A stretch of DNA of 64,000 nt from a virus: the IMG/VR virus record IMGVR_UViG_3300020578_000011, one strand, 5' to 3'. The translations under genes and the position numbers were made by a program. Of the stretch, positions 2,287 to 62,165 are shown piece after piece; positions within the stretch are counted from its first letter, which is position 1, and each line of letters begins with the position of its first letter. The notes below the pieces were generated by a model. It made no database searches, was not told the DNA's origin, and saw only the letters and a program-made list of their open reading frames with translations.

Positions 2287-3402
2287 ATGCCTGTTGGAGT
2301 TATAAAAACAAAAGCAGATCATAAAAAATGGAAAAAAGCAAAAAAGATTGTCGAAGAACAACACGGCGAAATACGCTGGCCTTTGGTCATGCACATATAT
2401 CAACAAATGGCTAAAGATGACGAACCAAAAGATAAAAATGTTTTAATTGAAAGAGCATTAGATAAACAAGGCAGAAAAGTCGTAATTCCACAAGAGGTTC
2501 ATGATGTGTTAAAACCAATGTGGGAGAGAGATAAAGATAAATTATTAACACCAGAACAAAAACAAAAATTAGAATCAATAAAACAAGCAAAACAAAGACG
2601 TTCTGAATTTAAAATAGTAAAATCAGCAGAAGAATTAAATTATGTAGAAAGTTCTTTAAAAAAAATAAAGCAAGAACTAGATGTTTTTTTTATTTTAGAA
2701 AAAGATGAAAAATCTGGATCAGGAGGATGGAAACCACCATCTGGTTTTGACCCCAAGACCCACCCAGACACAAGCGCATTAATGCTTATTCATGGATTAA
2801 ATCCACGTGAAGCTTCTTTTATGTCTGGTGCTCATACTTCTAATGAGTATTCTAGAGGTAGGTACTTCAGACCAACCCCTCTATCTGAAGGAATGCTTGA
2901 ACATGCTAAAAGAGTAGCTAAACAAAAATTTGAAGAACATGAGCAAAAAAGAAGAGAAACTGCAGATCCGGCTCAAAATCCAGATTTATTTTTACAACAC
3001 AATGCTCAAAGTGTTCACAAGGGATTTAATGGTAATTTTCAAGATGATTTAAAGAATTTTAAAGAATCTGATGAATTTAAAAATTTATCACAATCTGATA
3101 GACCTGGCAGAATCATGCAATGGAAAGCTGATTGGCAAAAACAAAACTTAGAAAATCAAAAACAATCAGCCGCAAAAGCAGCTGGACTGCATAGTGAATT
3201 GGCAGATCATGCAAACACAGAACGAGCTAAAAAATTAATTGAGCAACGTGAAAACATATTAAGAGGCGGAGAAGGAGTTTCTGATTCTTCTTTTTCTGAT
3301 AAGGTTAAAAGAGACACGCCAGATCATAGTGTAGATGAAGATTTAAGCGACGAAGACATGGAAGATATAAAAAATCTCGAGGAAGATGATTATGGACGAT
3401 AA
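2287..3402 (+). CDS. Putative internal head (poly)protein
   Basis: 371 aa, charged; small N-terminal module (MPVGVIKT..W..AK..W..VM.IY..M); hydrophobic-x-K sites (IVKS, LEKD). Confidence 0.55.
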   Translation: MPVGVIKTKADHKKWKKAKKIVEEQHGEIRWPLVMHIYQQMAKDDEPKDKNVLIERALDKQGRKVVIPQEVHDVLKPMWERDKDKLLTPEQKQKLESIKQAKQRRSEFKIVKSAEELNYVESSLKKIKQELDVFFILEKDEKSGSGGWKPPSGFDPKTHPDTSALMLIHGLNPREASFMSGAHTSNEYSRGRYFRPTPLSEGMLEHAKRVAKQKFEEHEQKRRETADPAQNPDLFLQHNAQSVHKGFNGNFQDDLKNFKESDEFKNLSQSDRPGRIMQWKADWQKQNLENQKQSAAKAAGLHSELADHANTERAKKLIEQRENILRGGEGVSDSSFSDKVKRDTPDHSVDEDLSDEDMEDIKNLEEDDYGR

Positions 3403-4120
3403 TACTATACATAAATATTTAGTAAGTAATTATATGCCATTAATGATTGGTGTTATAAGAAAAATGAAAAATAAGGGACTGATACCGCAAGATATGTCTC
3501 ATTTGAGTCCAGATGAGTTATTTCTTGATCTTTATGAACCAGCTGTTCATGGTTTGATGAAGTCAATTCATACTTATGATCCTAATAAACTATCTTTAAA
3601 AACCGGTAATAAAAAAAGTTTTATAGCACATGCTTGGAGCACGATAAGTGGAATAGTATCCGATCATCTTAAAAATAAAAACATAGCATCTGCAGATGTG
3701 AATTTAGCTAGAATTAATCAAGCTAAAAAAGAAAACGCATCAACTCAAACTATTGGTATTAAAGGACAAGGCATAGGTAGAGAGGTAGCAGAACATCTAG
3801 GCGGAACTGTTGGAGAAGAAGGAGAGGGGGTCGGTGGAGTTTCAGTTATTAGAAATCCAGAGCAAGAATTTGCAACAAGACTATCTCCAGAAGCTAAAAA
3901 TATCCTCCAAGCAAAAATAGATAAAGCAAAAGCTAAACTTGGAGAAAAAACACAAACATCGTCAGATCAACCACCCGCCTTACCTTCACAGGTAAAGGAA
4001 CCTTCTTCAACAGAGCCTCAAAAACCAAAGTTAATAATAAGACGCATGGCAAAACCAGATCAAGTTGATCGCATGGAAAGAATAGATGCTGCAAAAGCAG
4101 CATCTAAGAAGCCGGAGTAA
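3386..4120 (+). CDS. Sigma70-family region 2 (FliA/sigma28-like) protein lacking an obvious region 4
   Basis: YLVSNYMPLM...IP..D..DLYEPAVHGLMKSIHTYDP...SFIAHAWSTISGIVSDHLK follows the sigma region 2 pattern (L..Y.PLV...DL...G..GL..AI..YDP...F..YA...I.G...D.LR). The rest is low complexity. Confidence 0.65.
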   Translation: MIMDDNTIHKYLVSNYMPLMIGVIRKMKNKGLIPQDMSHLSPDELFLDLYEPAVHGLMKSIHTYDPNKLSLKTGNKKSFIAHAWSTISGIVSDHLKNKNIASADVNLARINQAKKENASTQTIGIKGQGIGREVAEHLGGTVGEEGEGVGGVSVIRNPEQEFATRLSPEAKNILQAKIDKAKAKLGEKTQTSSDQPPALPSQVKEPSSTEPQKPKLIIRRMAKPDQVDRMERIDAAKAASKKPE

Positions 4121-4123
4121 TAA

Positions 4124-4957
4124 ATGTCAATTACAGATTCTCAATACAATCCGCCGTTTCCTCATGCTGAGCTGAATCAAGAAACACCTCATCCAGGGCG
4201 ATATCTATCGCTTCCAACTGCTCAGACTTTAAGAAACACTAGTCTATTTGGAATACCGTTAAGATCTTCTTTGACAAATCAAGAAATGAGTGATGCTACT
4301 TTAGAAGATTATATTTTAAAATCAATATCTCAATTAGAGCACGAGTTAAACATATTCATAACACCTGTTCAATTTGAAGAGCGACATGATTATATTCGTA
4401 AGTTGTTTCAAAATTCTTATGCTTTTTTAAAATTAAATAATGCTCCAATTTTAAATGTTCAACAAGTTAGACTTAGTTTTAGCAACCAACAAGATCCACA
4501 ACCAGCTTTTATAGAATTTCCATTAGAACATGTTTATGTGGATGCTCAAGAAGGTGGAATAAGACTTGTTCCAGCGTATGGGACATCTGTTTCTGGTTTT
4601 TTATTATCTGCCTTTGCTGGTGCGCAGATGCATGCTTTAATAGCAGCTGGATTAGATGTTTTTCCAGGAGCCGTTAGAGTTAGATACAGAGCAGGCTTTG
4701 ATAAAGATAAGGTGCCTGCTGTTATAGTTGGAATAGTAGAAAAACAAGCAGCATTGTTTGCACTTACGACAATTGCACCACTCATATTTCCGTATAATTC
4801 AGTAAGCATAGGCATAGACGGCGTTAGCCAAGGCGTCGGTACACTTGGGCCTAATTTCTTACAAGCAAGAATACAGGAACTTCGTCAACAAATACAAGAA
4901 GAAAAAGAAGCAGCTAAGACATATTATTTAAAACGTACTTTGATTGATTTTATTTAA
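4124..4957 (+). CDS. Neck / head-tail connector protein
   Basis: V.Y.AG..P motif and SIGIDGVSQ segment typical of SPO1/K-like head completion proteins; position downstream of MCP. Confidence 0.7.
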   Translation: MSITDSQYNPPFPHAELNQETPHPGRYLSLPTAQTLRNTSLFGIPLRSSLTNQEMSDATLEDYILKSISQLEHELNIFITPVQFEERHDYIRKLFQNSYAFLKLNNAPILNVQQVRLSFSNQQDPQPAFIEFPLEHVYVDAQEGGIRLVPAYGTSVSGFLLSAFAGAQMHALIAAGLDVFPGAVRVRYRAGFDKDKVPAVIVGIVEKQAALFALTTIAPLIFPYNSVSIGIDGVSQGVGTLGPNFLQARIQELRQQIQEEKEAAKTYYLKRTLIDFI

Positions 4958-4966
4958 AGGTGTAAA

Positions 4967-5656
4967 ATGACTGTTAAAAAAAAGTCTAAGAAAATAAATA
5001 AAGTTGAGATAAAAAATCCAGATGGTTCTATTTCTAGATACCCAGGTAAAGAACCGCTGATCAAACCTAAAAAAGATCTTTCTAAAACAATTTTAGAAAG
5101 ATGGGAACTTATAAAAGCTGCATTAAATCACGAAGACTCGTTTTTGCCAATGATAAGTCGACAAGCGGTTGTTGATATGAATAAGACGCCCGAGCAAGAT
5201 GCCAAAGAGCAAGTGCCAGCGCAGCAAGAACAAGAATCTCAAGAAGACAAGCCTCAAGAAGACAAACCTCAAGAAGAGCAGCCTCAAGAAGAGCAAGGAT
5301 CAGACAGCCAAGATCCTGAATACGATGAACAAAAATTAATTGAAATGCTTCAGCAGGAAGGATATTCCGATCAGGAAATAGCTCATATAGTTCATGGCCA
5401 TGTTCCATCTCAACCTTCGCCAGAGGAACTTAAAAATATAGAACAGCATCAAAAACTTAGTCATAAAGATGATCTTCATGATGTTACAATTGATCATCAA
5501 AAAGCAAACCACGATATAGAGTTGGATCATAAAAAAAGAATGCTAGATCTAGAGCGCGAGCATGCTAAAAAAGAAAAAGAAATGAGATTAAAGCATTTGG
5601 AAGAAGAATTAAAAACAAAATTAGAGCACCTAAAAAATAAACAATCACAACTATGA
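4967..5656 (+). CDS. Hypothetical Q/E-rich coiled-coil protein (putative internal head protein)
   Basis: 229 aa; (P)QEDK/QEEQ repeats; LIKA site. Confidence 0.55.
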   Translation: MTVKKKSKKINKVEIKNPDGSISRYPGKEPLIKPKKDLSKTILERWELIKAALNHEDSFLPMISRQAVVDMNKTPEQDAKEQVPAQQEQESQEDKPQEDKPQEEQPQEEQGSDSQDPEYDEQKLIEMLQQEGYSDQEIAHIVHGHVPSQPSPEELKNIEQHQKLSHKDDLHDVTIDHQKANHDIELDHKKRMLDLEREHAKKEKEMRLKHLEEELKTKLEHLKNKQSQL

Positions 5657-5693
5657 TATTGCTGTATAATCATATAGTATAAAAAGGTGTCTT

Positions 5694-6647
5694 GTGGAGA
5701 GGTTAATTAAATCAAAAAATGGTCAATGGTCATTGATAAAGGTGGCCGATGAAGTTAAAAATAGAATAGCTGAAAAGGTGTCTAGAATGGCCGAACAAGG
5801 TCAGGGAGATGTCAAAGCAAACACCTCAGAAAGCATTTACAACATCCCTAAAGAAGCAAAGGATTTCAATCCTCATATTCATTTATTTCATCCCAACGCA
5901 TCAGATCCTCTTCATAGATTAAATCAAGATGAGTGGCATAGTCATTTTCAAAACATGATGCAAAATGATAAATTAAACACTGATCAAATAGATACTCTGG
6001 AGGCAGAAAATAAGCGTCGTGACAATGTTATCCACATGGCGAATCAAAAAAAATCAAAAAAACCAGTCTTTGATCCAAGAGCTATAAAAAGAGGCGAGTC
6101 TGATGTAAGATTTGACAATGTAGATTATAAAGTGCGTATAGAAAGAGATTTTGGAGACATAGATAGAATGTCTCCCGAAGATAGAGAAAAAATTAAACAA
6201 CAACACAACCTATCTACAGAAAACATAATGCAAAGAAAAGAACAACAAGAAAAGCAGCAAGCAAAAAATAAAGAACTTGCAGATAGCCACGCTGCTGAAG
6301 TTGAAAGAGTCAAGCATGAAAAGTTTAAAGAAGCTCAAAAATCAATAATGAAAAATTTACCACTTAACGATAAAAAACAAATGGATGACCTTTATAAAAG
6401 AATATCCGGCAGTAAGGATCTTGCAGACAAAATATCAAGATACCTTCACATTGTACATGAAGTCAAACCAGATGGATCTGTTGCAAATATTTCTTACCAT
6501 CTTAAAAATCATGCTAGTGAACAGTTAAACGACTTCGTCACATCAATGCGCGGCGACAATGCTCCGTACACTGAAAATAGATTTGTAGGATTAGACGATG
6601 TAAATCCACATGACACACCTAACTTGATTGATAAAAAGGGAGCTTGA
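5694..6647 (+). CDS. KNGQWSL-motif protein 1 (putative internal head protein)
   Basis: GTG start with SD AAGG; N-terminus MERLIKSKNGQWSLIK. Confidence 0.6.
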   Translation: MERLIKSKNGQWSLIKVADEVKNRIAEKVSRMAEQGQGDVKANTSESIYNIPKEAKDFNPHIHLFHPNASDPLHRLNQDEWHSHFQNMMQNDKLNTDQIDTLEAENKRRDNVIHMANQKKSKKPVFDPRAIKRGESDVRFDNVDYKVRIERDFGDIDRMSPEDREKIKQQHNLSTENIMQRKEQQEKQQAKNKELADSHAAEVERVKHEKFKEAQKSIMKNLPLNDKKQMDDLYKRISGSKDLADKISRYLHIVHEVKPDGSVANISYHLKNHASEQLNDFVTSMRGDNAPYTENRFVGLDDVNPHDTPNLIDKKGA

Positions 6648-6649
6648 TA

Positions 6650-7198
6650 ATGGAAAAGTTGATAAAATCAAAAAATGGTCAATGGTCTTTAACAAAAGCA
6701 AAAGACTCCTCTGGAGACAACGACAACAACGAGATGCTAATGTCTCAACTTAAGCAGATTGTTCACCATGTTAAAGAATTGAATTCAAACATAGATAGAT
6801 CGGGCAATGAGCCTGATTGGGTAAATGCTAAAATCACAGAGGCAGCAAAAGCATTGTCAGATGTTGCTCATTATATCGACGGTCTTAAAGATGTTAAAAA
6901 GACCGAAGAAATGAAAAAAAATATGAATGATGATATGGAAAAAGAAATAAGAAGATTGCAAGCCAATAAAGATGCTGCTGGTAACTTTATAAGACCTAGA
7001 GTCAAACCCGGTAAAGCAAATAGATTTATGCATGGTGGAGTTCAAGGTTGGAATCTATTTGATGAAAGAGTAGATGAAAAAATGCAAGGTAAGAAACCTA
7101 AAAAAGAGTCAACTGATAAAGCAAAAAGCATTCAACAACCAAATACTAAACCAAAAATAGTAATCAGAAGAAAAAAACCTAGCACAACTGAGGAGTGA
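6650..7198 (+). CDS. KNGQWSL-motif protein 2 (putative internal head protein)
   Basis: ATG 6650; MEKLIKSKNGQWSLTK followed by a helical module M..SQL..I..H...PDWV.AKIT.A...LSDV.HY. Confidence 0.6.
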   Translation: MEKLIKSKNGQWSLTKAKDSSGDNDNNEMLMSQLKQIVHHVKELNSNIDRSGNEPDWVNAKITEAAKALSDVAHYIDGLKDVKKTEEMKKNMNDDMEKEIRRLQANKDAAGNFIRPRVKPGKANRFMHGGVQGWNLFDERVDEKMQGKKPKKESTDKAKSIQQPNTKPKIVIRRKKPSTTEE

Positions 7199-7201
7199 TT
7201 T

Positions 7202-9907
7202 GTGTTTCAGAAGGATGAGGAGACAATCGACGTATTATCGACCCGTCATCTTGGTCTTATTCCAGAAGGCCATCCTGATCGTAAAAAAATAGCTCAGCAT
7301 ATTAATAATCTAAGAACATCAAATCCAAATGAAGCAAGACGTTTGTATGATCGTTTCATAAGTGGTGGCGGTAGCTACATCAAAGATAAATCTGAAATTA
7401 ATATTAAAGTAAATAAATCAGAAAATAATATTAATTTAACTTTAAAAAATCATTTTGAAGGTTCTTCTACTTCTCCAACTGAGTACCACTATTCGGTTCA
7501 CAAAAATGGTGATGAAATTGGTCGTGCAATTGTCTTTGATAAAGACCCAAGATCAATACACTCTCAAGGCAAAGAAGGTGCTTCTTTAAAAGATATAAGA
7601 ATAAAACCAGAACATCATGGCAAAGGATACTCTGAGCACATAATCAATTCACTTGTTGAAAAACATGGTCCACTTGCGTCCGATAGTAGAGGAAATATAT
7701 CCGAAGCCGGACATAAGATGTTTAGTAAATATGGTTCTTCAATAAAATCAAAAGAAAATAAAGATTTATATATGTTTGGAGGATCTGTGAAAAAATATTT
7801 ATCTACTGAAAAATTACCTTTGTATTCTGAGTACATAGAACCGCTACAAAAGGGCGAGAAGTTTCCTCATTTTTTGAATTTCATGGGTAACCACCCTAAA
7901 GCTCGAGAAACAGCTCAATGGGTTGATGAAAATATAAAACACAGAAATTTGGCTGAGTTAGCTATGCGTCATGCAAAAACTAAGCCAGAGGGTCTTAACG
8001 ACGAAGAAAAAACTCACATTAAGCACTTTAATGATTCACTGCATATGCCAGAAGTTCAAAAGGCTGCCGGTTCGATAACAAGTCAGCATGATTTTTCTAG
8101 TGGAATTGAGCTATTGAAAGAAGCGGAATCTGCTTATCAAAAAAGACATGCAAAAGAAGCTCCTACGTTAGTTTCGACGGAAGGAGAAAAGTTATTAGAT
8201 TTTGGCGATGGAGTTGGTGTTTATAGACTTCCGTTAAATGCAGACCGTAAAAATAAAAACGAAGCCACAGCTATGGGCCATTGTGCTACTCCACATAAAG
8301 GCGGGGAGTTGTGGTCTATTAGACGTGACCACGGTAATGGAATGGTTGAACCTTTAATATCCATATCGCACGAAGGCGGCTATCTTGGTGAAATGAAAGG
8401 AAAACATAATTGGAAGCCATCAGCAAAACATCACGGACATATTGCTAAGTTGTTGGCGTCCGATAAAATTAAAGGGTTTGTTGGAGGAGGGTATGCTCCA
8501 GAAAGCAACTTTGAAATTTCTGATTTAAGTGAAGGATTTAAGAATAAATTATTAGAATATAAGCCATCTTTAATTCAAAAAGTTTATAAAGAAAATTTGC
8601 CAGAAGGGTTTCAAGGAGACTATAATCATACTCCTGAAATTAAAAGTATTTTTAGTACAAGTGATTTAGCTGCTCAACAAAAATATTTAGCAAAAATTAG
8701 TGAAAATACGGACCAGCGTAGACGTGTTCTCTGGAGCGCAGCAACAAACCCACACACACACCCAGACATTCTTCACAAACTAGCAGAAGACTCTGACCAA
8801 GATGTTGTCTGGAGCGTATCACATAACCCAAATACACATCCAGATACTCTCCACAAACTAGCAGAAGACTCTGACTACGGTGTTCTCTGGAGCGTATCAA
8901 CAAACCCAAATACACATCCAGATACTCTTCACAAACTAGCAGAAGACCCTGGATACGAGTTACGCGAAAACGTAGCACTACACCCAAATACACATCCAGA
9001 TACTCTCCACAAACTAGCAGAAGACCCTTATGTTCGCAAAAGCGTAGCAACAAACCCACAATTCAAAAATTTACCGCTAGAAATACAACAAAAAGTAAGA
9101 CCACTTGTAAATACACCTATTCAAAAAATTATTGCTATGATTAATGATGGAGAAAATAACCCAGACCCTGCTCATGAAGCAACAGAAGAGCTAAAATTAC
9201 GCCGTCAAGAAAAATACGACAAAATTCTTTCTCCAGAAGGAAACTTAAGTGATATTCAGCATTTATCTGAATCACACAATAATAATATTGCAAGACGAGC
9301 TAGAAATGAATTAAAACGCAGAGGATTACAAAAATCAGATCTTGAGCATAGTTTAGAATTTGCTAAAAAATACAAATCTTTAGCCAAGCATGCAGTAGAT
9401 CAAGGAGACAAAGAAGGTGCTACTAAATATATGAAATCTTTATTAATTCATTTACAAAAAAGTTATCAATTTTTAAACAATGAAAGATTTGAAAAATCTC
9501 AAAAAAATCACCCTAAAGGTGGTCTTTCTAGAAAAGAAGCTAAAAAACACGGAATACATGCCGGCATAGAAACACACGATGAAGTTAAGAGAAAAGGTGG
9601 AGTAAGCAAACTATCTAACAAAACATCTGCTCGACGTAGAAGTTTTTGTGCTCGCCACTGTGGGATGAAGCGCAAGTTTCCTAAAGCATACAAAGATAGG
9701 CAGTCAAAAGGAAACAAAGCACTCCGCGTATGGCATTGTGGATCTTGTTCTAATTGGCTTAAGAAATCAATTGGAGCAGATGATACAATAAAATTCTATG
9801 AAGATCAAGACAATTTAATAATAGAATTTGACAATGATGTTCCACATGAAATAGAAACACTTGTCGTCGCATCTATTCTAGCTAAAGGATTTAAAGAAAA
9901 TGAATAA
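7202..9907 (+). CDS. Multidomain polyprotein: GNAT-like, PcfJ-like, LRV-type helical repeats, C-terminal 'RRRSFCAR' basic domain
   Basis: I.PEHHGKGY (GNAT motif A-like); NEATAMGHC..WSIR..EMKGKHN.KP; 26-aa NPNTHPDTLHKLAED repeats; KGGL..RRRSFCAR..KALRVWHC. Confidence 0.65.
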   Translation: MFQKDEETIDVLSTRHLGLIPEGHPDRKKIAQHINNLRTSNPNEARRLYDRFISGGGSYIKDKSEINIKVNKSENNINLTLKNHFEGSSTSPTEYHYSVHKNGDEIGRAIVFDKDPRSIHSQGKEGASLKDIRIKPEHHGKGYSEHIINSLVEKHGPLASDSRGNISEAGHKMFSKYGSSIKSKENKDLYMFGGSVKKYLSTEKLPLYSEYIEPLQKGEKFPHFLNFMGNHPKARETAQWVDENIKHRNLAELAMRHAKTKPEGLNDEEKTHIKHFNDSLHMPEVQKAAGSITSQHDFSSGIELLKEAESAYQKRHAKEAPTLVSTEGEKLLDFGDGVGVYRLPLNADRKNKNEATAMGHCATPHKGGELWSIRRDHGNGMVEPLISISHEGGYLGEMKGKHNWKPSAKHHGHIAKLLASDKIKGFVGGGYAPESNFEISDLSEGFKNKLLEYKPSLIQKVYKENLPEGFQGDYNHTPEIKSIFSTSDLAAQQKYLAKISENTDQRRRVLWSAATNPHTHPDILHKLAEDSDQDVVWSVSHNPNTHPDTLHKLAEDSDYGVLWSVSTNPNTHPDTLHKLAEDPGYELRENVALHPNTHPDTLHKLAEDPYVRKSVATNPQFKNLPLEIQQKVRPLVNTPIQKIIAMINDGENNPDPAHEATEELKLRRQEKYDKILSPEGNLSDIQHLSESHNNNIARRARNELKRRGLQKSDLEHSLEFAKKYKSLAKHAVDQGDKEGATKYMKSLLIHLQKSYQFLNNERFEKSQKNHPKGGLSRKEAKKHGIHAGIETHDEVKRKGGVSKLSNKTSARRRSFCARHCGMKRKFPKAYKDRQSKGNKALRVWHCGSCSNWLKKSIGADDTIKFYEDQDNLIIEFDNDVPHEIETLVVASILAKGFKENE
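8724..9060 (+). repeat. About 4.3 tandem 78-bp repeats encoding LRV-like helical repeats
   Basis: CACAAACTAGCAGAAGAC core recurs with 78-nt period. Confidence 0.9.
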
Positions 9908-10844
9908 AGAATTAATAGAACTTTATAAATCAAAACCAGAACTAATAGACGAGCACAAGAAACTTGTTCAAGTTCTTCGCCACGGCACCGATACTGAACA
10001 AAAAAAAGAAGCAGAACGTCAGCTAAAAGAACTTAAAGAAATGTTAAATAAAGAAGAGAAAAACTCTGATGATAAAAAAACACACTTGTCTACAGATGGA
10101 AAAACCTTTATCAATGGTTCTAGCATTAAAAAAATCTTAGATAGAGGGGTGAAGAATGGAGTGCAAACAAGAACATATGAAATGCATGATGGATCTGTAA
10201 AAGAAGCATACTTTCCCCACTATGAAGAATTAAAAAATTCTCCTAATCATTATCAATTAAGTAAACTAACTAAAGAAGAATTAGAAAAAAGATGCTGGGA
10301 AGGATACAGACCCGTTGCCGGTAAAAAGCCGTATGAAAAGGGCTCTTGCGAACCTGTGTCAAAGCAAGAAGTGTTAAAAATAGAAAAAAATGGCCAATGG
10401 TCTCTTGATAAGAGCAATAATATAAAACCTTTTGGTGAAAATATATTTGATACTACAGCAAATATTCAAAGAAAAGCTAAAAGACTTGGTGAGGTTCAAG
10501 AAGGAGTGGGTGCTAATCAAGCTGTTCATCCGTTCACAGGCCTTTGAGGAACTGCTAATGAACAAGCAAAAAGAAAATCTCAAGAAGACATTGAACAAAG
10601 CAAGAAAAAAGTAACTTCATACGATTTTTCTGGCGTCAAGCCAGAGCACCATGCTCAGGTTGTGGAAAGAATCAAAGCAGGAGAGGGTATCGAGACTTTA
10701 TCTGAACTTGGTTTGAAACAAATTATAAGCGATTCTGCTAGTGTTAAAAGAAAAGAAAAAGCTAGTAGAAAAAGAAAAAATAAATCAATTGATTTAGGTG
10801 TTCTAAAACTTAAAAAAAAGAAAAAACCTAAAAATAATATATGA
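9900..10844 (+). CDS. KNGQWSL-motif protein 3, interrupted by one in-frame TGA at 10545-10547
   Basis: ORFs 9900..10547 and 10662..10844 are in the same frame and open between them (GTANEQAKRKSQEDIEQ...). Contains a CWEGY...GSC module and EKNGQWSLDKS. Confidence 0.6.
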
Positions 10845-10879
10845 TATTATAATTAATAATATTAATAAAGGTTTGTTTT

Positions 10880-11302
10880 ATGAACGATGACAAAATAGAT
10901 GATCTTAAAAAAGAAATGTCAGACGTAAGATATACCACGTCTCAAATAAATGAAAAAGTTAATGATATTAAATTAGATATTGCTTCTCATGTTGCTGATT
11001 TTCGTGAACAAGTTGTAACACAAAAACACATGCAAGAAAATCTAAGCATGATTGCCAAGGCTCTTCAACAGAACACAGATAGTTTAATAGAACATATGGC
11101 AAGAACAAAGACAAATGAAGTTGCCATAGAAGAATTAAAAAACATATCCATCAATATTGATAAAAGATTAAGTCCATTAGAGATAAGTCAGATAGAAAAA
11201 AATACAATAAATAAAATATGGAAAAAAATAGGCTGGGCAATAGGAACAATTGCCACTCTAGTGTCTTTCGTGTATACAATATTTAATATTTTATCAAAAT
11301 GA
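10880..11302 (+). CDS. Coiled-coil protein with C-terminal TM helix (holin/XhlA-like)
   Basis: C-terminal IGWAIGTIATLVSFVYTIFNIL; upstream TGATATTAT box. Confidence 0.5.
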   Translation: MNDDKIDDLKKEMSDVRYTTSQINEKVNDIKLDIASHVADFREQVVTQKHMQENLSMIAKALQQNTDSLIEHMARTKTNEVAIEELKNISINIDKRLSPLEISQIEKNTINKIWKKIGWAIGTIATLVSFVYTIFNILSK

Positions 11303-11336
11303 GTATAATTATGTTGATCATTGGAGATGTTTTTAA

Positions 11337-12056
11337 ATGGGAAAGATTTTAATAGGCAAAGATGATTCTTCTCTTAAAGAATCAAGTTTTAAAAAAGAAA
11401 ATCAATTTGAAACATTATTTAATAAAATTAAAGATATAGAAACCCTTCTCTTTTCTTCAGAGAAAACCGATTATTCTTATGATGTTGATTTTAAATCATT
11501 ATTAAAATCTCAAGATTTAAATAGTTTACAAGAAAATTTAAACAACATTGATAAAAAAACAAACGTTCTAGAAAAAACAGATTTTAAAATAAAATCAATT
11601 CTAGAATCATTGGAGCTTTTTGCCTTAAATAATAACGAATTAAAAGAACTTATAAAACAAACATTGCAACATGTAAACGAACTCGAACTAAACTATATAA
11701 ATCTTAACAATGCAGCAAAACAAGAATATATTAATTATTTTAAATTTTTGGAAATAAATTTAGTAAAAACACTAAATGAAATAAGCATTATAAATTCAAA
11801 GATTGATGAGCAAAATAAAAACAATAAAAATAATTTTTTATTAGATAGTCTTGAAAAAATAAAAGAAGAAAATAACAACAACAATACTCAATTAGCCATT
11901 TTATTAAATCATCTTATTGTTGAATTTAAAAATTTTAAAACAAATCAAGGTAGAAAAGAAGAAGAGGAGAATGTTAGACAAAAAAGATTAAAATTTATAT
12001 TAAAAATTTGTATTACCTTAAATATTGTATCGGTTTTATTTGCATATTTTTTATAA
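11337..12056 (+). CDS. Coiled-coil tail-anchored membrane protein
   Basis: C-terminal hydrophobic helix FILKICITLNIVSVLFAYFL. Confidence 0.5.
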   Translation: MGKILIGKDDSSLKESSFKKENQFETLFNKIKDIETLLFSSEKTDYSYDVDFKSLLKSQDLNSLQENLNNIDKKTNVLEKTDFKIKSILESLELFALNNNELKELIKQTLQHVNELELNYINLNNAAKQEYINYFKFLEINLVKTLNEISIINSKIDEQNKNNKNNFLLDSLEKIKEENNNNNTQLAILLNHLIVEFKNFKTNQGRKEEEENVRQKRLKFILKICITLNIVSVLFAYFL

Positions 12057-12104
12057 AACTTTAACATAAATGCGAGAGTTTTCATCTTTTAAGGAGGCTA
12101 AAAG

Positions 12105-12899
12105 ATGGCCGGAAATGCTACAAAATCTAGTTCTTTAACACATATAAGTCAAGCTACGCTTGATGAAATTAGTCAATCTGTTAAAACAACCGTTTTAATT
12201 GATGGTGAACCAGTTAGTCATTCCAATCCCTTACCTATAGACGCAAACATAACAGTTCAATCTATTCAAACAACTTCTAATGTTAGAATAGAAGCCAACA
12301 ACCAATCAGTAAGTGATTCAAATCCTCTTCCTGTATACGGTTCTGTTGATGTTGATGGATTAAAAGTAAATGGTTTTTATGTAAGTCAATCAAATCCTCT
12401 ACCTGTGGATCTAACAGATGTAGAAATTGCTGTTTCTTTAAATAAAAATTCAGATTCAGTTCAGTCTTTTCAGGGTGAGTCTTCTCCAGGGGTAGTTGTC
12501 CCATGGAAAGTCGAATCTGAGAATTTAGATATAAGAAACATAAACCATACAATAGATAGTATAAAAATAGGAAATGGATCGACTTTTCTTCATATCGACC
12601 AAGATGGAAGCATTAACACAGTCTCTGTATTAGAGCAAACTTATTTAAGTGCAAATATAATAGTAGGAACTTCTCAAATTGAAATTAAAACAGGAATATC
12701 TAGATTAAGCAGTCGCAAGATGGTCAGTGTTCATAATTATGGTCCTAATATTATATACATAGGCCCCAGTGGAGTAACTTCGACAACGGGAAGACCTCTT
12801 TTTGTGGACCAGTGCATGGATATGCCAATAGGTAACATGGCTGTGTACGCTATTTCAGAAGAACCAGGAAATTCTATAATAGTTCAGGAGATTGGTTGA
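12105..12899 (+). CDS. Virion structural protein with (V)S.SNPLP(V) repeats
   Basis: SD AAGGAGG; three S.SNPLP repeats; beta-rich C-terminal domain (V.N.G...IYIG...V....G.PL). Confidence 0.6.
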   Translation: MAGNATKSSSLTHISQATLDEISQSVKTTVLIDGEPVSHSNPLPIDANITVQSIQTTSNVRIEANNQSVSDSNPLPVYGSVDVDGLKVNGFYVSQSNPLPVDLTDVEIAVSLNKNSDSVQSFQGESSPGVVVPWKVESENLDIRNINHTIDSIKIGNGSTFLHIDQDGSINTVSVLEQTYLSANIIVGTSQIEIKTGISRLSSRKMVSVHNYGPNIIYIGPSGVTSTTGRPLFVDQCMDMPIGNMAVYAISEEPGNSIIVQEIG

Positions 12900-13318
12900 T
12901 GATTAGAGTATCGCCAACAGCAAGATCAATTCCTTTCGATAAAATAAACTCTAATGTAAATTTTAATAATTTACAAGAAGCAGTTGAATCTTTAAATAGT
13001 GAAATAATAATTGTTCAAAATGAAACAGCAGCTGTATATGATTCTATAAAAGCATACAGAGATGAGTTCATTGTCACTCAAAGTGTGATTCAAAACGGAA
13101 TTGAATTATCAGCGTCAAAGGTATCCGACATAATTCCTAATTCTGTAATTGCTTTTGTAGATAGAGTAGGTTTGTTTGAGAATTTTGATTTTCAATTAAT
13201 AAATGGACCGAATGATAAGGTTAAATTTAACTTTCTTCAACAAGCAACAGATATTCAAAATGGCTTTGTAGAAGGCGGTGAGTATTTAAGAATTCATTAT
13301 TTAACTAGATTAAAATAA
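12899..13318 (+). CDS. Putative virion structural protein
   Basis: TGATG overlap; C-terminal domain resembles the C-terminus of 13375..14418. Confidence 0.55.
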   Translation: MIRVSPTARSIPFDKINSNVNFNNLQEAVESLNSEIIIVQNETAAVYDSIKAYRDEFIVTQSVIQNGIELSASKVSDIIPNSVIAFVDRVGLFENFDFQLINGPNDKVKFNFLQQATDIQNGFVEGGEYLRIHYLTRLK

Positions 13319-13334
13319 TCTAAGCCTGAAGTCA

Positions 13335-13376
13335 TGATACAATTATCGTATCTTGATCCAAAAGGAGAGATACGAT
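13335..13376 (+). promoter_or_regulatory. Late-type promoter (TGATACAAT) overlapping an RBS-sequestering hairpin
   Basis: ATCGTATCT (13345-13353) pairs with AGATACGAT (13368-13376, includes AT of ATG); TCC pairs with GGA of the SD. Confidence 0.6.
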
Positions 13377-14418
13377 GGCTTTGCAAATTAAAAGTAAATT
13401 TATTCAAGATGAAGCAATTGATGGTGATAAACTTAAATTAAAATCAGGTCAAGCTGTCCGCTTGCGAAAAGCAGACAATACTGAAGTTCGTTTAATTGAA
13501 CTTGATGAGGCTTCTGGAAAAGTAGAAGTACTTGGTCAACCTATTGCTTTAGAGGCAGCTCTTCTTCAAGAAGTACAAGATCGCATAGCTGGCGATGATG
13601 CACTAGACACAAGATTAGATATTATAGAAGGACCAGATACTCAAGCTGGATCTATTTTAAAAGCTTTAAAAGATGCAAAAGCATATGTAGATGATGTTGT
13701 TGGTGTTTCTTCTACCGTTGTATCTACCTTTGCAAATCTTTCTACCTACATGTCAGATGGAGATGCAGCAACTGGCCTTATCAATAGTGTCGGTGCTGTT
13801 CGCGATGAGTTAGATGCAACTCAATCTGGTGCTGGATTAAATTCAAACGGTTCCTATTATGCAAATGGTTCAGCAAATTATATTGCAGCAGCTGTTTCAT
13901 TAAAAGATGCTGATAATAAATTAGATGCTGCAATAAAAGCAGAAGAAGCTAGAGCACTAGCGGCCGAAGCAGCCGAAGCATCTGCTCGCCAAGCTGCAGA
14001 TTCAGCTCTCCAATCTGATATAGATGCAGAAGAAGCTAGAGCACTAGCAGCCGAAGCAGCTCTCCAATCTGACATAGATGCAGAAGAAGCTAGAGCGTCA
14101 GGCGCAGAGACAGCATTAGATGGCCGCTTGGATGTTTTAGAAGCTCGTCTTTTTCGTAAACAAAAATTTACATTAGTAGCTCAAGATATCACAAATGGAT
14201 ACGTTGAGCTTTCATTAGAAGCTATGGAAAATTCAATCGTGGCATCTGTTGGTCGTCTAATGATACATGAAGGAGTGGGAGAAGATTTTACTGTTTCTGT
14301 TGTTGGTCCAGTTGGAGCTAAAAAAACTCGTATTACATTTGTGGGAAATTTAATTGAACCTAGTGAAGAAAAATTAGAAGCTGGTGATGTTTTATACGTT
14401 CGTTATATGAATGTTTAA
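13375..14418 (+). CDS. Fibre/whisker protein with trimeric coiled-coil ([10 protein letters not shown]) repeats
   Basis: Ala-rich heptad repeats shared with 17397..22583. Confidence 0.7.
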   Translation: MALQIKSKFIQDEAIDGDKLKLKSGQAVRLRKADNTEVRLIELDEASGKVEVLGQPIALEAALLQEVQDRIAGDDALDTRLDIIEGPDTQAGSILKALKDAKAYVDDVVGVSSTVVSTFANLSTYMSDGDAATGLINSVGAVRDELDATQSGAGLNSNGSYYANGSANYIAAAVSLKDADNKLDAAIKAEEARALAAEAAEASARQAADSALQSDIDAEEARALAAEAALQSDIDAEEARASGAETALDGRLDVLEARLFRKQKFTLVAQDITNGYVELSLEAMENSIVASVGRLMIHEGVGEDFTVSVVGPVGAKKTRITFVGNLIEPSEEKLEAGDVLYVRYMNV

Positions 14419-14518
14419 TAAATACTAATATTTCTATATGATATAATATACACAAGTCATTTTTATAGATAACTTGTGTATATTTTTTATAAAATACTTG
14501 TTTTTTAAAGGAGATAGT

Positions 14519-14872
14519 GTGAGTTTTGCTAAAAAATATGCAACAAGTCAATTAGGTGTCCTTGAATACAAAGGAACATGGAACGCAAACTCAAATTATC
14601 CTTCTTTGACTAGTTCCGTTGGCGACAAAGGTGATTATTATATTGTATCTGTTGCTGGTGCAGCACCATTAAATGGAATAACCGATTGGCAACCCGGAGA
14701 TTGGGTTATTTTTTCCGGAACTGAATGGCAAAAACTTGATAATAGTGAAAGTGTTACAAGTGTAAATGGACAAACCGGAAATGTGGTTATAGACCAAATC
14801 GGCGAACTAGATGGCGGCGAAGCACATACCCTTTATGGTGGAAATGGCGTTTTTAGCGGAGGAGGTGCATAA
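14519..14872 (+). CDS. Tail fibre-associated protein
   Basis: GTG start after GGAG; YKGTWNA..N.P.L....G..GDYY.V...G...W..GDW.I....W.K.DN and VTSVNGQTG.V fibre motifs. Confidence 0.7.
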   Translation: MSFAKKYATSQLGVLEYKGTWNANSNYPSLTSSVGDKGDYYIVSVAGAAPLNGITDWQPGDWVIFSGTEWQKLDNSESVTSVNGQTGNVVIDQIGELDGGEAHTLYGGNGVFSGGGA

Positions 14873-15114
14873 TGGCAGTTAAAATTCAACTTCGACGAGA
14901 TACTGCGGCAAATTGGCAAAGTGTCAACCCAGTATTATCTATTGGCGAACCTGCGATTGAAATTGATACAGGTCAAGTCAAAATCGGAAATGGTGTTGAC
15001 GCTTGGAACTCTTTACAATATACCCTAAATATTGAACGGCTTGAGAATATCGATGGCGGAACGCCAAGTAGTAATTATGTTTCAGCACAAAGCATATCAG
15101 GAGGAACACCCTAA
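14872..15114 (+). CDS. Stand-alone Mtd_N (major tropism determinant N-terminal-like) protein
   Basis: IQLRRDTAANW...NPVL..GE...E.DT...KIGNG...W..L.Y. Confidence 0.8.
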   Translation: MAVKIQLRRDTAANWQSVNPVLSIGEPAIEIDTGQVKIGNGVDAWNSLQYTLNIERLENIDGGTPSSNYVSAQSISGGTP

Positions 15115-16340: not shown

Positions 16341-16660
16341 TGATTGTTGGCCACTTAAAAGATGAACTTCTGGATCATGTTGAAAAAGATGAATTAACAG
16401 AACAAGATCGTAATATGTATAAAGAAACTAGTCAATGTTCACAGGGGCATGAAGGTTCTGTTGTTCTTGTTGAAGAAAAGAAAGACTAGTATATTAAATT
16501 TATAATTTTTAAAATTAATCAAAATGAATTCAAATCTCCAGTGTTTGAAACAAAATCATTAAATAAATGTTTAAATTTTATATATACACAAATTTCTGAA
16601 TATTTATTTTCTATTGAAAAGAATGATGATTTTAAAAATGAGTTAGGTTATTTAACCTAA
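16340..16660 (+). CDS. Small hypothetical protein with in-frame TAG at 16487-16489
   Basis: ATG overlaps the upstream stop (TAATG); 49 codons, TAG, then 56 further sense codons to TAA 16660. Confidence 0.45.
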
Positions 16661-16723
16661 CAATTGTGATATATTTTATGTGTAATACTTACACGTTTAA
16701 ACGTGAACAGAAAGGTAACAATA

Positions 16724-17380
16724 ATGGCTCTTTCTAGTAAAGCTCGTAAAGTACTTGAAGTAGGTTTGGCAAATAGATCAGTCGCTCGTGAAATTGCAGA
16801 TGCAATCGACTCGGGCGGAGGCGGAGGCGTTGCTGGTCCACAAGGTCCTGCTGGTGCCGTTGGTCCACAAGGTCCTGCTGGTGCTGCTGGTCCACAAGGT
16901 CCTGCTGGTGCTGCTGGTCCACAAGGTCCTGCTGGTGCTGCTGGTGCTGCTGGTCCACAAGGTCCTGCTGGTGCCGCTGGTGGAGCTCCGGTATCTAAAT
17001 TTATAGAATTATCATCCGGCGCAAGAGTTAGAATCTCTGCTTTTGGATCTCAATCAGATGTAAATAGCGTATCAATGGTTTTATCAGGTGGCAATACGCT
17101 TACAATAAGCAACGTTGCAAGTTCTCTTGTGTTGCATGATGTAACTATCTCATACGACGCAGGCATTAATGCATCTGCTAGTTTTAGTTTAGTTTATCCA
17201 GAGCCACATGCTCAAACCGACCTTCTTCTTACAAAGTTTCCTATAATGCAGCATTTTAATGCAGTTGGTGTTATACAGCTATCTAATAGCATAGCCGTAG
17301 CAAACAATGCTGGTGTTGTTACTGTAAGTAAGAGTAGTTTGGCTTCTGGTTCAGGCGCATTTTTTAAAGTACATTTTTAA
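16724..17380 (+). CDS. Short collagen-like fibre/decoration protein
   Basis: ATG 16724 after AAGG; (GPQGPAGAA)n; N-terminal anchor similar to that of the 62190 gene. Confidence 0.75.
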
Positions 17381-17396
17381 TTAAGGAAAAAACACA

Positions 17397-48446: not shown

Positions 48447-48510
48447 TAGAATCGGATGACATAGCTATAAGAATATTGACATTTCCTCCTTCAATAGAAA
48501 TAGAATCGGA
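48447..48510 (-). promoter_or_regulatory. Tandem TCCGATTCTA motifs (48447-48456, 48501-48510), each followed by AAGGAGG
   Basis: Direct reading of the intergenic region. Confidence 0.75.
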
Positions 48511-51209: not shown

Positions 51210-51510
51210 ATTCTCTGATACCAGATGGGGTTATTATTGTTATCTTACATCTTTCTACGGGGAGTATTGTCCATTCGTATTCAAGTAAATCTATTTTTCC
51301 ATCTTTAGATGCTTTTTCTAAAGCGAGAAGTAGCTCTTCCTCTTTTTCTCTATTTGAACAGATTTGATTAAATGTAGAATCGGAAAAAACTCCAGAAATT
51401 TTTAATTCATTCGCTATATGAGCAACAGATACTGAATATTTTGTTATATTTTTAATTACTTGTAATTTTCTTAGACTCTTCTTCGAAGGTACGTTTTCCG
51501 TGTGTTCCAT
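51193..51510 (-). CDS. Hypothetical protein
   Basis: ATG after GAGG. Confidence 0.55.
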   Translation of the reverse strand: MEHTENVPSKKSLRKLQVIKNITKYSVSVAHIANELKISGVFSDSTFNQICSNREKEEELLLALEKASKDGKIDLLEYEWTILPVERCKITIITPSGIREYESKT

Positions 51511-53262: not shown

Positions 53263-53306
53263 AACAAATCTCCATTGTTGTTAATGATCATAGATTCGGA
53301 TATTGC

Positions 53307-57240: not shown

Positions 57241-57282
57241 ATAGATATCCTCCAACAAGGATATATTGGAATCGGAAAACAC

Positions 57283-59891: not shown

Positions 59892-59894
59892 AAA

Positions 59895-60281: not shown

Positions 60282-60315
60282 TTTACAACCTCTTTTTCAA
60301 TTAGAATCGAAAAGA

Positions 60316-60982: not shown

Positions 60983-61058
60983 TGGTAGGCCCGGGTGGAA
61001 TTGAACCACCTACCAACTGCTTATAAGGCAGCTGCTCTGACCGGTGAGCTACGGGCCT
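60983..61058 (-). tRNA. tRNA-Ile, anticodon TAT (UAU), with encoded CCA
   Basis: AGGCCCG acceptor / GCTC D-arm / GCTGC-CTTATAA-GCAGT anticodon arm / GGTGG-TTCAATT-CCACC T-arm / CGGGCCT-A-CCA. Confidence 0.9.
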
Positions 61059-61401: not shown

Positions 61402-61460
61402 ATATCCTCCTTCTTATGAAGAAAAATAGAATCGGATTTTACTAATGAGCTAATAATGAA

Positions 61461-61583: not shown

Positions 61584-61592
61584 TTTGTATCC

Positions 61593-61817
61593 TTAATAAG
61601 TTAAATTTAATAATTTACCAATCATAACTAAAACAGGATGCTCTGCTTGCATGCAGACTGGGACTAAAAAACCAGGAATCCCAGGAAAGTCATCTATACA
61701 TTTCTCTGCAGCATGTAGTAAAAATTGATAACCCACATACGCCATGAGTTTTGTAAAAACAATTCCAGATAAAAAGCATAATACATATTTTTTCAAAGGT
61801 CTCATTAAGATCTCCAT
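61593..61817 (-). CDS. Small membrane protein
   Basis: Hydrophobic helices. Confidence 0.5.
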   Translation of the reverse strand: MEILMRPLKKYVLCFLSGIVFTKLMAYVGYQFLLHAAEKCIDDFPGIPGFLVPVCMQAEHPVLVMIGKLLNLTY

Positions 61818-61882
61818 ATATCTAATTCAAATAAATTATACTTTCTATATCTATGTGTTTTGGGTAGTCTTTCATGGTAGAA

Positions 61883-62041
61883 TTAACTTTTTAAATTACC
61901 ACGTTTAAGACGATGGCGAATTAGATTATATAGAAATCTACTTATTTCAACTGCAAAACCGATAAAGATCATGTATAAACAAACTTTTAACAGTAAAAAA
62001 GATATTCCCACAAAGTTTATAATATAAACAAAAACTTCCAT
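61883..62041 (-). CDS. Small hydrophobic membrane peptide (52 aa, not in ORF track)
   Basis: MEVFVYIINFVGISFLLLKV...; SD GAGGG. Confidence 0.45.
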   Translation of the reverse strand: MEVFVYIINFVGISFLLLKVCLYMIFIGFAVEISRFLYNLIRHRLKRGNLKS

Positions 62042-62049
62042 AAATACCC

Positions 62050-62112
62050 TTAATATATGGTAAAAAAATAAACTATTACCAATATGAGTCCTATTAAAAA
62101 CAACTCGTCCAT
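62050..62112 (-). CDS. 20-aa single-TM peptide
   Basis: MDELFLIGLILVIVYFFTIY, directly downstream of the motif at 62126-62135. Confidence 0.4.
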   Translation of the reverse strand: MDELFLIGLILVIVYFFTIY

Positions 62113-62125
62113 ATTTATCTCTTAT

Positions 62126-62165
62126 AAGAATCGGAAATATATTAAACCATTTGCTATGATATATT
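62126..62165. promoter_or_regulatory. Back-to-back divergent promoters: TCCGATTCTT (- strand) and TGATATATT (+ strand)
   Basis: Located at the strand switch between the early block and the collagen gene. Confidence 0.65.

Follow-up and report, generated by a model that had tools for sequence, protein, structure and literature searches.

A FliA-like mini-sigma gene in the head module of an uncultured freshwater phage and the possible carriage of its product in the virus particle

The sequence analyzed (the window) is a 64,000 nt stretch of IMGVR_UViG_3300020578_000011, from an uncultured freshwater phage. The + strand at the start of the window contains a head module with the following features.

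1-726, + strand: C-terminal half of the major head protein (the gene is complete in L001)
2287-3402, + strand: Xn, 371 aa, corresponding to the N-terminal portion of protein X of the head module (by homology, synteny and fusion forms)
3386-4120, + strand: P0001, a mini-sigma of 244 aa, made up of sigma regions 1.2-2-3.0, then a disordered linker, then a tail conserved at the C-terminus
3386-3700, + strand: sigma domain 2 and region 3.0 helix of P0001, aa positions 1-105 (by pLDDT and fold matches)
4022-4117, + strand: C-terminal tail of P0001, KPKLIIRRMAKPDQVDRMERIDAAK..., common to protein X of relatives
4124-4957, + strand: head-tail adaptor-like protein (phrog_772/442), which fixes the identity of the module
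7148-7171, + strand: KPKIVIRR, near the C-terminal end of a 184 aa head-module protein (6644-7198)

The P0001 gene is located between the major head protein and the head-tail adaptor; the preliminary description had placed it between putative internal head proteins and the neck gene. The adaptors of this phage and of SPO1-like phages are approximately 30% identical.

P0001 displays weak direct matches to Sigma70_r2 (PF04542; 15.8 bits, E-value = 0.012, which is under the gathering score of 24 bits) and to the phrog_351 “sigma factor” (E-value = 0.003). The AlphaFold model of P0001 shows three helices at residues 10–100 with a pLDDT of 74–84. Comparison of the model with sigma domain 2 had been proposed as a check, and a fold search with residues 1–105 finds the three-helix sigma-2 fold, with sigma domain 2 structures at all of ranks 1–17. 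The best match is SigI6 (8i24_F, Z 8.1, rmsd 3.2, 85 aligned), and others are SigB (8x6g_H, Z 7.9), sigma28/FliA (6pmj_F, Z 7.5, 21% identity) and sigma70 (1sig_A, Z 7.3). These Z values are middling, thus the weight rests on the consistency of the matches. Within aa positions 1–105 the sequence GLMKSIHTYDP is like the core-binding region 2.2, and the sigma domain is 31% identical to a bona fide phage sigma of the RpoD-like kind. Residues 102–213 are mostly disordered (largely pLDDT <50) with short helices only, and a Pfam search of P0001 found no Sigma70_r4.

P0001 is the most divergent member within its own family. Relatives that score above the Pfam Sigma70_r2 cut-off are P0076 (29.1 bits), P0090 (24.3 bits) and a 123 aa protein of G008 (38.1 bits), and P0001 is tied to these by profile search (E-values 2e-26 to 6e-4) and by tblastn (1e-9 to 2e-19). 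The top NCBIfam model for the relatives is FliA/WhiG (E-values 5e-23, 6e-16, 4e-10 and 1e-8), and the matches cover model positions 1 to ~90 of 224, a stretch that we take for region 2 together with the 3.0 helix. The best relative has 81.9 bits against TIGR02479 at positions 2–89 of 224, where the family cut-off is 189.6 bits; neither P0001 nor any relative scores as a full-length FliA/WhiG protein (>189.6 bits, with regions 3 and 4). The best NCBIfam model for P0001 itself is general sigma-70 (E-value = 1.5e-5), and the TIGR02479 FliA/WhiG model is absent among its own matches. As judged from these family comparisons, P0001 is derived from, or most like, FliA/WhiG in region 2 only. The FliA-like region 2 without region 4 that had been claimed for this gene is thus borne out by the fold, by the relatives' matches to FliA/WhiG and by the lack of a region 4 match.

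The tail of P0001 has a 38% identity to the C-terminus of L010:8885-10267, and Xn has a 35% identity to a 460 aa protein of L010 (E-value = 4e-54); X of distant relatives corresponds to the 371 aa protein of the window plus the tail of P0001. Among the relatives compared, the conserved tail is always the end of the gene directly preceding the adaptor, and the X or mini-sigma gene is always immediately before the adaptor. The Xn chain of relatives bears either the tail alone or the sigma domain plus the tail. The sigma domain is within X in seven of ten large relatives and is a free gene in three. The order Xn-sigma2-tail in a single chain is present in six large genomes, and in G007 and P0089 X ends with the sigma domain. 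The free mini-sigmas (G001, G008 and G009) are 123–164 aa in length, have no tail and adjoin ligase/RNR genes; all three genes display a TATAAT box 15–25 nt upstream and no -35. Sequence and synteny indicate that the C-terminal tail of P0001 is borrowed from the neighboring head-module protein X.

The core of the tail, KPKxIIRR, recurs at the end of another, unrelated head-module protein (6644-7198). The pattern KPK[IVLM]3RR has only two occurrences in the six-frame translation, and both are at the C-terminal ends of + strand head-block open reading frames. The 184 aa protein begins with the peptide KNGQWSL, which is common to three neighboring proteins and is absent from P0001. X itself has no PHROG or Pfam match and its model in the Atlas has a pLDDT of 0.49; it could be an assembly factor that exits the head.

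A second protein of the window resembles sigma domain 2.

34535-34909, - strand: P0002, 124 aa, last gene of the operon behind the motif at 36193-36202

The AF2 model of P0002 has a pLDDT of 80 and the top 11 matches of its fold search are sigma domain 2 (Z 7.5–5.9). P0002 displays no Pfam or NCBIfam match and no sequence kinship to FliA or any sigma model. There are 64 homologue clusters for P0002 versus seven for the close kin of P0001, and ten of ten large relatives have both types of protein. P0002 is behind class A boxes (see below) in the window phage and in two relatives. It is a genuine candidate for a second, very divergent and widely conserved sigma-2-only protein, and model comparison agrees with its earlier designation as sigma-like.

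The class A motif is a strand-specific 10-mer, TCCGATTCTA, with eight exact and five one-mismatch copies in the window, all on the - strand.

62126-62135, - strand: TCCGATTCTT, ~84 nt before the first called gene
61427-61436, - strand: exact, 26 nt before the ATG of 61401
60302-60311, - strand: TTCGATTCTA, before 60281
57267-57276, - strand: TCCGATTCCA
53291-53300, - strand: TCCGAATCTA, directly after a hairpin and before 53262
51375-51384, - strand: exact, intragenic, next start 166 nt on
48501-48510, - strand: exact, first of a tandem pair, precedes only a 5-codon open reading frame
48447-48456, - strand: exact, second of the tandem pair, 23 nt before the ATG of 48424
44485-44494, - strand: exact, before 44471
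37321-37330, - strand: exact, before 37289
37110-37119, - strand: TCCGATTCCA, intragenic
36193-36202, - strand: exact, heads the operon 36172 > 35420 > 34909 that ends with P0002
33567-33576, - strand: TCCGATTCTT, before 33556

With up to one mismatch allowed, both strands together have 14 matches (13 on the - strand and one on the + strand) versus 3.2 expected, and no shuffle gave 14; the exact 10-mer is expected ~0.07 times per strand from base composition. Eleven of the 13 copies precede a gene start, and nine are 19–32 nt upstream of the start codon, in most cases separated from it by a Shine-Dalgarno box; the overall spacing to the start codon spans 19 to >160 nt. Neither a -35 element nor a conserved flank is present around the copies and the information is confined to ten positions. 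This agrees with the preliminary description of - strand genes that carry a CCGAT motif near the Shine-Dalgarno box without a -35. Eight further copies are outside of the window on the same strand, giving a total of 21 at up to one mismatch. Four of these eight, which read CCGATAC, are stacked in a gap of 838 nt that precedes the first small gene. CCGAT-type boxes recur among relatives. The established -10 element of FliA/sigma-28 is GCCGATAA with CCGAT as its core, and the class A motif shares this CCGAT.

TATAAT-type (class B) boxes are found before genes of the + strand.

862-870, + strand: TGGTACAAT, in the gap that follows the major head gene; heads the block 907 > 4120, to which the mini-sigma gene belongs
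13335-13343, + strand: TGATACAAT, before 13375
14439-14447, + strand: TGATATAAT, before 14474

The mini-sigma gene is in a head block behind a TATAAT-type box and not behind a class A promoter. Structural genes had been described as carrying TGNTAYAAT boxes. The count does not uphold this, as there are seven occurrences in the window versus 10.0 ± 3.2 expected; strand and position are suggestive only, with all seven on the + strand and three within the few + strand intergenic gaps. Since the pattern is not enriched by count, its designation as a late class rests on analogy. GTATAAT-type boxes are also upstream of three - strand genes (37599, 38126 and 61817), and sigma-70-type matches in the small-gene region are modestly above chance (57 versus 37.6 ± 6). 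By their sequence the TATAAT-type boxes look like extended -10 promoters of host sigma-A.

A FliA-derived mini-sigma probably reads the CCGAT promoters. P0001 would be a FliA/sigma-28-derived sigma that is cut down to regions 1.2, 2 and 3.0, which would bind the host RNA polymerase core at its beta-prime clamp helices and steer it to the 10-bp elements, these being extended -10 promoters without a -35. The class A promoters would drive a leftward unit of ~44 kb with small “takeover-type” genes, nucleotide-metabolism genes and P0002. The earlier proposal of a mini-sigma paired with -10-only promoters gains from the relatives' homology to FliA/WhiG, and the missing region 4 matches the missing -35; the pairing itself stays a probable one.

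The combination of a FliA-like mini-sigma, a head-protein tail and matching CCGAT promoters suggests that P0001 may ride in the virus particle. The tail would serve as address or tether, by which some of the mini-sigma gets into the particle, and P0001 would then enter the next cell alongside the DNA and open the stacked CCGAT promoters. P0002, made from CCGAT promoters, or host sigma-A could then serve the TATAAT-type promoters and close the loop. What the data show is the sigma-2 fold with its FliA kinship, the missing region 4, the counts and places of the motif and the fused domains; polymerase binding, sigma-motif pairing, timing and packaging we infer. Delivery in the virion is plausible, though short of likely: most relatives carry the sigma domain within, or joined to, a protein of the head module, the end peptide is common with another head-module protein and CCGAT promoters head the first small-gene unit. 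Counting against it are the three relatives whose mini-sigma gene stands free among nucleotide-metabolism genes, the TATAAT-type boxes, which host sigma-A could read at time zero, and P0002 as a second sigma-2-only candidate. The whole explanation, i.e. mini-sigma, class A promoters, tail address, delivery and the P0002/sigma-A loop, is the best we can offer and has somewhat less than an even chance. It is about as possible, and again short of likely, that only the promoter-recognition domain is packed, tethered via the tail of a head protein, and injected with the DNA to re-aim the host polymerase at the stacked CCGAT early promoters without a host sigma, and that a second mini-sigma made from these promoters turns on the virion genes, including that of the first, as a two-sigma loop that passes from cell to cell.

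The same sigma and CCGAT promoters could also operate without delivery. Because host sigma-A would read the TATAAT-type boxes from time zero, the mini-sigma could simply be made right after each infection, as in a cascade of the SPO1 gp28 type, and the X fusions would reflect a cause other than packaging, e.g. co-expression or an involvement of X in transcription. The resemblance of the boxes to extended -10 sigma-A promoters, the GTATAAT-type boxes of the three - strand genes, the excess of sigma-70-type matches and the tail-less mini-sigma genes with their own TATAAT box in three relatives all fit this explanation. However it leaves the three fusion architectures with one head-module protein and the shared KPKxIIRR end unexplained, the head genes would switch on along with the first regulator, and the four stacked CCGAT promoters that head the first unit would have to await new protein synthesis. 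We regard it as rather unlikely, though with appreciable weight. It is also conceivable, and distinctly improbable, that P0002 reads the CCGAT promoters and that the head-module sigma serves another end, e.g. late transcription or a block of the host sigma site on the polymerase. P0002 has the sigma-2 fold and the wider spread, and its gene is in a non-structural unit and would be made with those genes. Against this, it is without the FliA or sigma-model kinship of the mini-sigma family, and it cannot start its own class since its gene is behind a CCGAT box in the window and in relatives; presence of both proteins in all ten large relatives means that co-occurrence does not separate the two.

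Host FliA, or another alternative sigma, might read CCGAT at the start of infection with the phage copy only reinforcing it later. CCGAT is the core of the sigma-28 -10 element and a host factor would be on hand at time zero, but no TAAA-type -35 is present at the distance typical of sigma-28 (the closest TAAA to the stacked copy 6618 is 19 nt off instead of 15) and motif positions 6–10 (TTCTA) differ from ATAA. Reliance on a motility sigma would also restrict the phage to swimming cells, and many freshwater plankton are without flagella; we give this explanation little credence. Hardly more than a slight chance, and slighter still, attaches to the 10-mer being no promoter but a site, in DNA or 5′ leader, at which a regulator, nuclease or translational repressor acts. 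The motif is near a Shine-Dalgarno box in most copies, as such a site would be, however its distance to the start codon is variable, copies are stacked in tandem at the unit head, one follows a terminator-like hairpin, there is no conserved flank or structure and no Rfam match, and the matching type of sigma is encoded by the same phages.

To our knowledge phages start transcription in two ways, by a host sigma or by an injected whole polymerase. If the mini-sigma is indeed delivered, injection of a sigma domain alone would be a third and much cheaper takeover of the host enzyme at time zero. Apart from delivery, there stands a clade of uncultured phages of 130–177 kb, which comprises 35 viral contigs and encodes two sigma-2-only proteins, one of them what appears from sequence to be a FliA-derived factor working without region 4, and, at the C-terminal ends of head-module proteins, a peptide that is a candidate address. 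New here are the borrowed tail, the sigma domain within X, KPKxIIRR on a second head-module protein and P0002 as the second sigma-2-only protein.

T4 gp55 (with gp33 and the gp45 clamp) is like P0001 in its proposed role in that it is essentially sigma domain 2, uses the host core and serves -10-type-only promoters. It is among the fold matches (7d7d_F) of P0001 (Z 6.3, rmsd 5.7) and of P0002 (Z 5.6). Unlike gp55, P0001 is FliA-derived by its family's sequences and linked to a head-module protein, and no sequence kinship between the two is seen. T4 gp55 reads late promoters, TATAAATA, and precedes them, whereas the class A motif marks non-structural genes; TATAAATA has 12 occurrences in the window with no gene-start pattern. 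Bacterial FliA/WhiG is the best-scoring model for the P0001 family over region 2 and the 3.0 helix and has the CCGAT core in common. P0001 differs from it by the absence of regions 3.2 and 4 and by scores far under the family cut-off, and the class A promoters differ by the absence of a TAAA -35 and by a motif that continues TTCTA, not AA.

The SPO1 cascade of gp28 and gp33/34 is like the proposed system in that phage sigmas switch promoter classes, and its head-neck module is distantly related. In SPO1 and Herelleviridae host sigma-A reads the early genes and the phage sigmas are encoded outside of the head block; we know of none that is reduced to domain 2. Mapped late promoters of the Herelleviridae phage CKA15 are extended -10 promoters without a -35 (PMC12282133).

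The candidate KPKxIIRR end is like the capsid-targeting sequences of T4 and the cargo-loading peptides of encapsulins, i.e. a short conserved peptide on unrelated proteins, after a flexible linker, as an address to an HK97-fold shell. The T4 sequences are N-terminal and cleaved. T4 also packs a modifier of the host polymerase, the protein Alt. The KPKxIIRR end differs from the T4 tags in that it is C-terminal and a putative address only.

N4 vRNAP and the virion RNA polymerases of phiKZ/AR9 are cases where the phage supplies the machinery for its own early promoters (PMC4496689, PMC5312081). For phage Arash, mass spectrometry of virions detected the sigma factor Gp10 with 467 spectra (PMC10585845). 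N4, phiKZ, AR9 and Arash pack a whole polymerase, whereas the phage described here would deliver only the promoter-recognition domain, to re-aim the host enzyme.

The DNA comes from an uncultured freshwater phage, with a G+C content of 35% in the window. Genes identical to those of the window are found in JGI lake metagenomes, the longest contig being 149 kb. A megablast search of positions 1–20000 against cultured phages gave no match. The features referred to below are:

1 to 30 kb, + strand: virion genes, among them the head protein end, an adaptor-like protein and very long fibre proteins
1–726, + strand: C-terminal half of the major head protein
2287–3402, + strand: 371 aa protein
3386–4120, + strand: P0001, the mini-sigma, 244 aa
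4124–4957, + strand: adaptor-like protein, sharing about 30% identity with the equivalent protein of SPO1-like Herelleviridae
30 to 62 kb, − strand: nucleotide-metabolism genes (both RNR subunits, ThyA, ThyX, GMP reductase, ligase, dCMP deaminase)
34535–34909, − strand: P0002, 124 aa

Four genes (104 aa, 349 aa, 371 aa and the 244 aa P0001) separate the head gene from the adaptor, whereas phage CP-51 has only one small gene in this position. An Atlas look-alike search with the 349 aa protein gave nothing usable. Both thymidylate synthase types, ThyA-type and ThyX-type, are encoded (33578–34348 and 45340–46221, − strand), and the open reading frame from position 62190 onwards is collagen-like. 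An Rfam search showed nothing except one tRNA; a tRNA-Ile with anticodon TAT is at positions 60983–61058 (− strand), within the motif-bearing unit described below.

P0001 had been described from the sequence as a FliA-like sigma region 2 that lacks region 4, and this description holds. Direct family matches are weak (Sigma70_r2, E-value = 0.012; phrog_351, E-value = 0.003). A model built from seven homologues is confident for residues 10–100 only, which form three helices (pLDDT 74–84). In an exhaustive structural search with this model, ranks 1 to 17 are all sigma domain 2. The Z values (SigI6 8.1, SigB 7.9, sigma-28 7.5, sigma-70 7.3, T4 gp55 6.3) are middling for a helical domain, and the weight rests on the consistency of the match list. 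Foldseek gave no match at E ≤ 0.001, yet its list is full of sigma chains.

When 1.8 billion proteins were searched with a profile, the family grew to 19 members, of which P0001 is itself the most divergent. Several relatives reach Pfam's own cut-off, and their best curated model is FliA/WhiG (E-value = 5e-23 for a 123 aa relative; 6e-16, 4e-10 and 1e-8 for others). The match stops near model position 90 of 224, which we take to mean that it covers region 2 and the initial helix of region 3. In the alignment of P0001 with an authentic RpoD-like sigma from a relative (31% identity over 86 residues), the sequence GLMKSIHTYDP falls on region 2.2, which binds the core enzyme. Neither the family models nor the structure model displays a region 4 in P0001. 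Searches of P0001 and of the head-module protein X (see below) by tblastn against cultured phages gave no match, a P0001 profile found nothing meaningful among Protein Data Bank sequences, and the broad alignment A3 is nowhere sufficiently conserved to be used for scanning loci.

A 138 aa Cys-rich protein encoded between the portal and head genes (L001:2994–3410, about 3.6 kb before the window start; only three homologue clusters) was considered as a separate "sigma-4 half" but is not supported as such, as only a 25-residue helix-turn-helix resembles sigma region 4, with a Pfam E-value of 6e-4 that is below cut-off; its profile has no meaningful match among Protein Data Bank sequences. A ribosomal frameshift joining 2287–3402 to 3386–4120 was also dropped. 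It would require a +1 shift, the overlap looks like normal translational coupling, with a GAGGAAG box followed by ATG, and the corresponding genes of the P0004 relatives have no overlap.

The C-terminal part of P0001 has a different relationship. Distant relatives encode a single 460 aa protein, X, which consists of a counterpart of the window's 371 aa protein (35% identity, E-value = 4e-54) followed by a C-terminus homologous to P0001 positions 157–244 (38% identity). The P0001 tail is borrowed from X. In every genome the tail is the end of the gene directly before the adaptor. This type of sigma is present in all ten large viral contigs that were searched whole (135–177 kb). Six have one chain of 508–645 residues at the equivalent site in the head block, in which the sigma domain lies between the N-terminal part of X and the tail; one contig, as well as protein P0089, has the sigma domain C-terminal to X; and in the remaining three the sigma is a free gene of 123–164 residues that adjoins ligase and RNR genes and is antisense to its neighbours. 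Each of the three free genes is preceded, 15–25 nt from its start, by a TATAAT box without a −35. A fourth form is found in the window, where the gene is split and the sigma domain retains the tail. The tail core, KPKxIIRR, is also found at the end of an unrelated 184 aa protein (6644–7198) and nowhere else in six frames of the window. X is predicted to be mostly disordered, and an Atlas look-alike search with it gave nothing usable.

Other short sequences are shared in the virion genes. The peptide KNGQWSL(I/T/D)K is encoded at positions 5715, 6671 and 10386 (+ strand), i.e. at the N-terminal ends of a 317 aa and the 184 aa protein and near the end of a 215 aa protein. These are otherwise unrelated, and the peptide may serve as a tag for targeting to the head or for cleavage; it is absent from P0001. 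A stretch from the N-terminus of the major head protein, NK-ALVAGYG.AG.PT.LT.GGV.QTES, is repeated close to the C-terminal end of the head maturation protease (phrog_1028, E-value = 1e-15; L001:3703–4584 and L001:5881–7335, upstream of the window).

The CCGAT-type motif, TCCGATTCTA, occurs in the window in eight exact and five one-mismatch copies, all on the − strand. With up to one mismatch there are 14 matches on both strands of the window compared with 3.2 expected, and 14 was never reached in shuffles. The preliminary description had reported about 11 − strand genes with the motif upstream and no conserved −35, and it is confirmed: 11 copies precede a gene start, information content is limited to ten positions, and nothing is conserved at the −35 location. 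Nine copies are 19–32 nt ahead of the start codon, in most cases separated from it by a Shine-Dalgarno box. The copy at 62135 is about 84 nt ahead of the first called gene, that at 48510 has only a five-codon open reading frame downstream, and two copies are intragenic. The five-codon frame (ATG TCA ATA TTC TTA TAG, preceded by a Shine-Dalgarno box) lies between tandem motif copies at 48457–48500 (− strand) and may be a leader peptide or a duplication remnant.

Beyond the window, in a 92-kb contig, the same strand runs on through about 25 small genes with eight more copies. This unit starts after an 838-nt non-coding gap, in which four copies (ACCGATACTA, TCCGATTCTA, TCCGATACTA, TCCGATACTC) are spaced by 48–60 bp directly before the first gene. 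The gap (L074:5937–6774, window-equivalent about 74.2–75.0 kb) is G+C-richer, and upstream of the four stacked boxes it displays two direct-repeat copies of gcaccctat.tggtggcagttgt, together with a GGTATAAT box and a TTGACA; it could be the site of an origin or of packaging, or encode an RNA.

CCGAT-type boxes precede genes in relatives of differing G+C content too, and one subclade has ACAGATT in place of CCGAT. Motif discovery by k-mers was noisy in the relatives because their genes are tightly packed, and was used only for these two observations. A relative with ACAGATT boxes and not CCGAT encodes a full RpoD/RpoS-like sigma with regions 1.2, 2 and 3 (L017:5962–7947). Its reading frame ends where region 4 begins, immediately ahead of an HNH endonuclease gene, and the sigma gene was probably split by a mobile element.

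P0002 is by its predicted structure a second sigma-2-only protein (pLDDT 80; sigma domain 2 accounts for every one of the best 11 matches in the structural search). No sequence model matches it, and its profile found nothing meaningful among Protein Data Bank sequences. It is widespread (64 clusters, 35 viral contigs), and a CCGAT-type box is ahead of it in the window and in two relatives. Alignment of the two sigma-2 families by hhalign (E-value = 0.018, probability 2.6%) gives the expected register but is no evidence of kinship. Co-occurrence fails to discriminate between the two proteins, as all ten large relatives carry both. The mini-sigma is probably the natural reader of CCGAT, because it is kin to FliA and keeps the 3.0 helix, the motif is 10 bp long, and region 4 and a −35 are both lacking.

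TGNTAYAAT boxes had also been ascribed to the structural genes, and here strand and position are suggestive but the number is not: the window has seven copies compared with 10.0 ± 3.2 by chance, i.e. no enrichment, all seven on the + strand and three in the few + strand gaps. Related boxes are present in most other gaps, and similar TATAAT-type boxes are ahead of three − strand genes. This part of the earlier description is weak. In the giant fibre genes (20700–22200 and 23500–29400, + strand), many near-identical repeats at intervals of about 170 nt are the source of most TG.TAAAAT matches.

As for the wiring, the mini-sigma gene follows a TATAAT-type box and P0002 a CCGAT box, and the first unit has CCGAT boxes at its head. 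If the mini-sigma reads CCGAT, something must therefore be present at time zero. Mapped late promoters of a cultured Herelleviridae phage are extended −10 elements without −35 (PMC12282133), and by analogy the mini-sigma may be placed among the late genes. Fusion to one head-module protein in three different architectures, and a C-terminal peptide in common with a second, are hard to explain for a cytoplasm-only factor and are expected for a particle-carried protein. Delivery of the mini-sigma by the virion is nevertheless a tentative candidate role, somewhat short of an even chance, because several points count against it: no function is known for X, which is predicted to be largely disordered; the sigma gene is free-standing in the metabolic block of three relatives; the TATAAT-type pattern is statistically weak; and these boxes could be read immediately by host sigma-A.

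Delivery of transcription machinery is known from N4, phiKZ, AR9 and crAss-like phages. A literature search found no report of a sigma domain alone being delivered to redirect the host polymerase. For phage Arash, a sigma factor was detected in the particles beside the phage's own polymerase subunits (PMC10585845). The mini-sigma derives from FliA, yet is not a member because regions 3.2–4 and the −35 are missing. Like T4 gp55 it is a sigma-2-only factor associated with −10-only promoters; unlike gp55, of which it is no kin, it would mark the opposite gene class.
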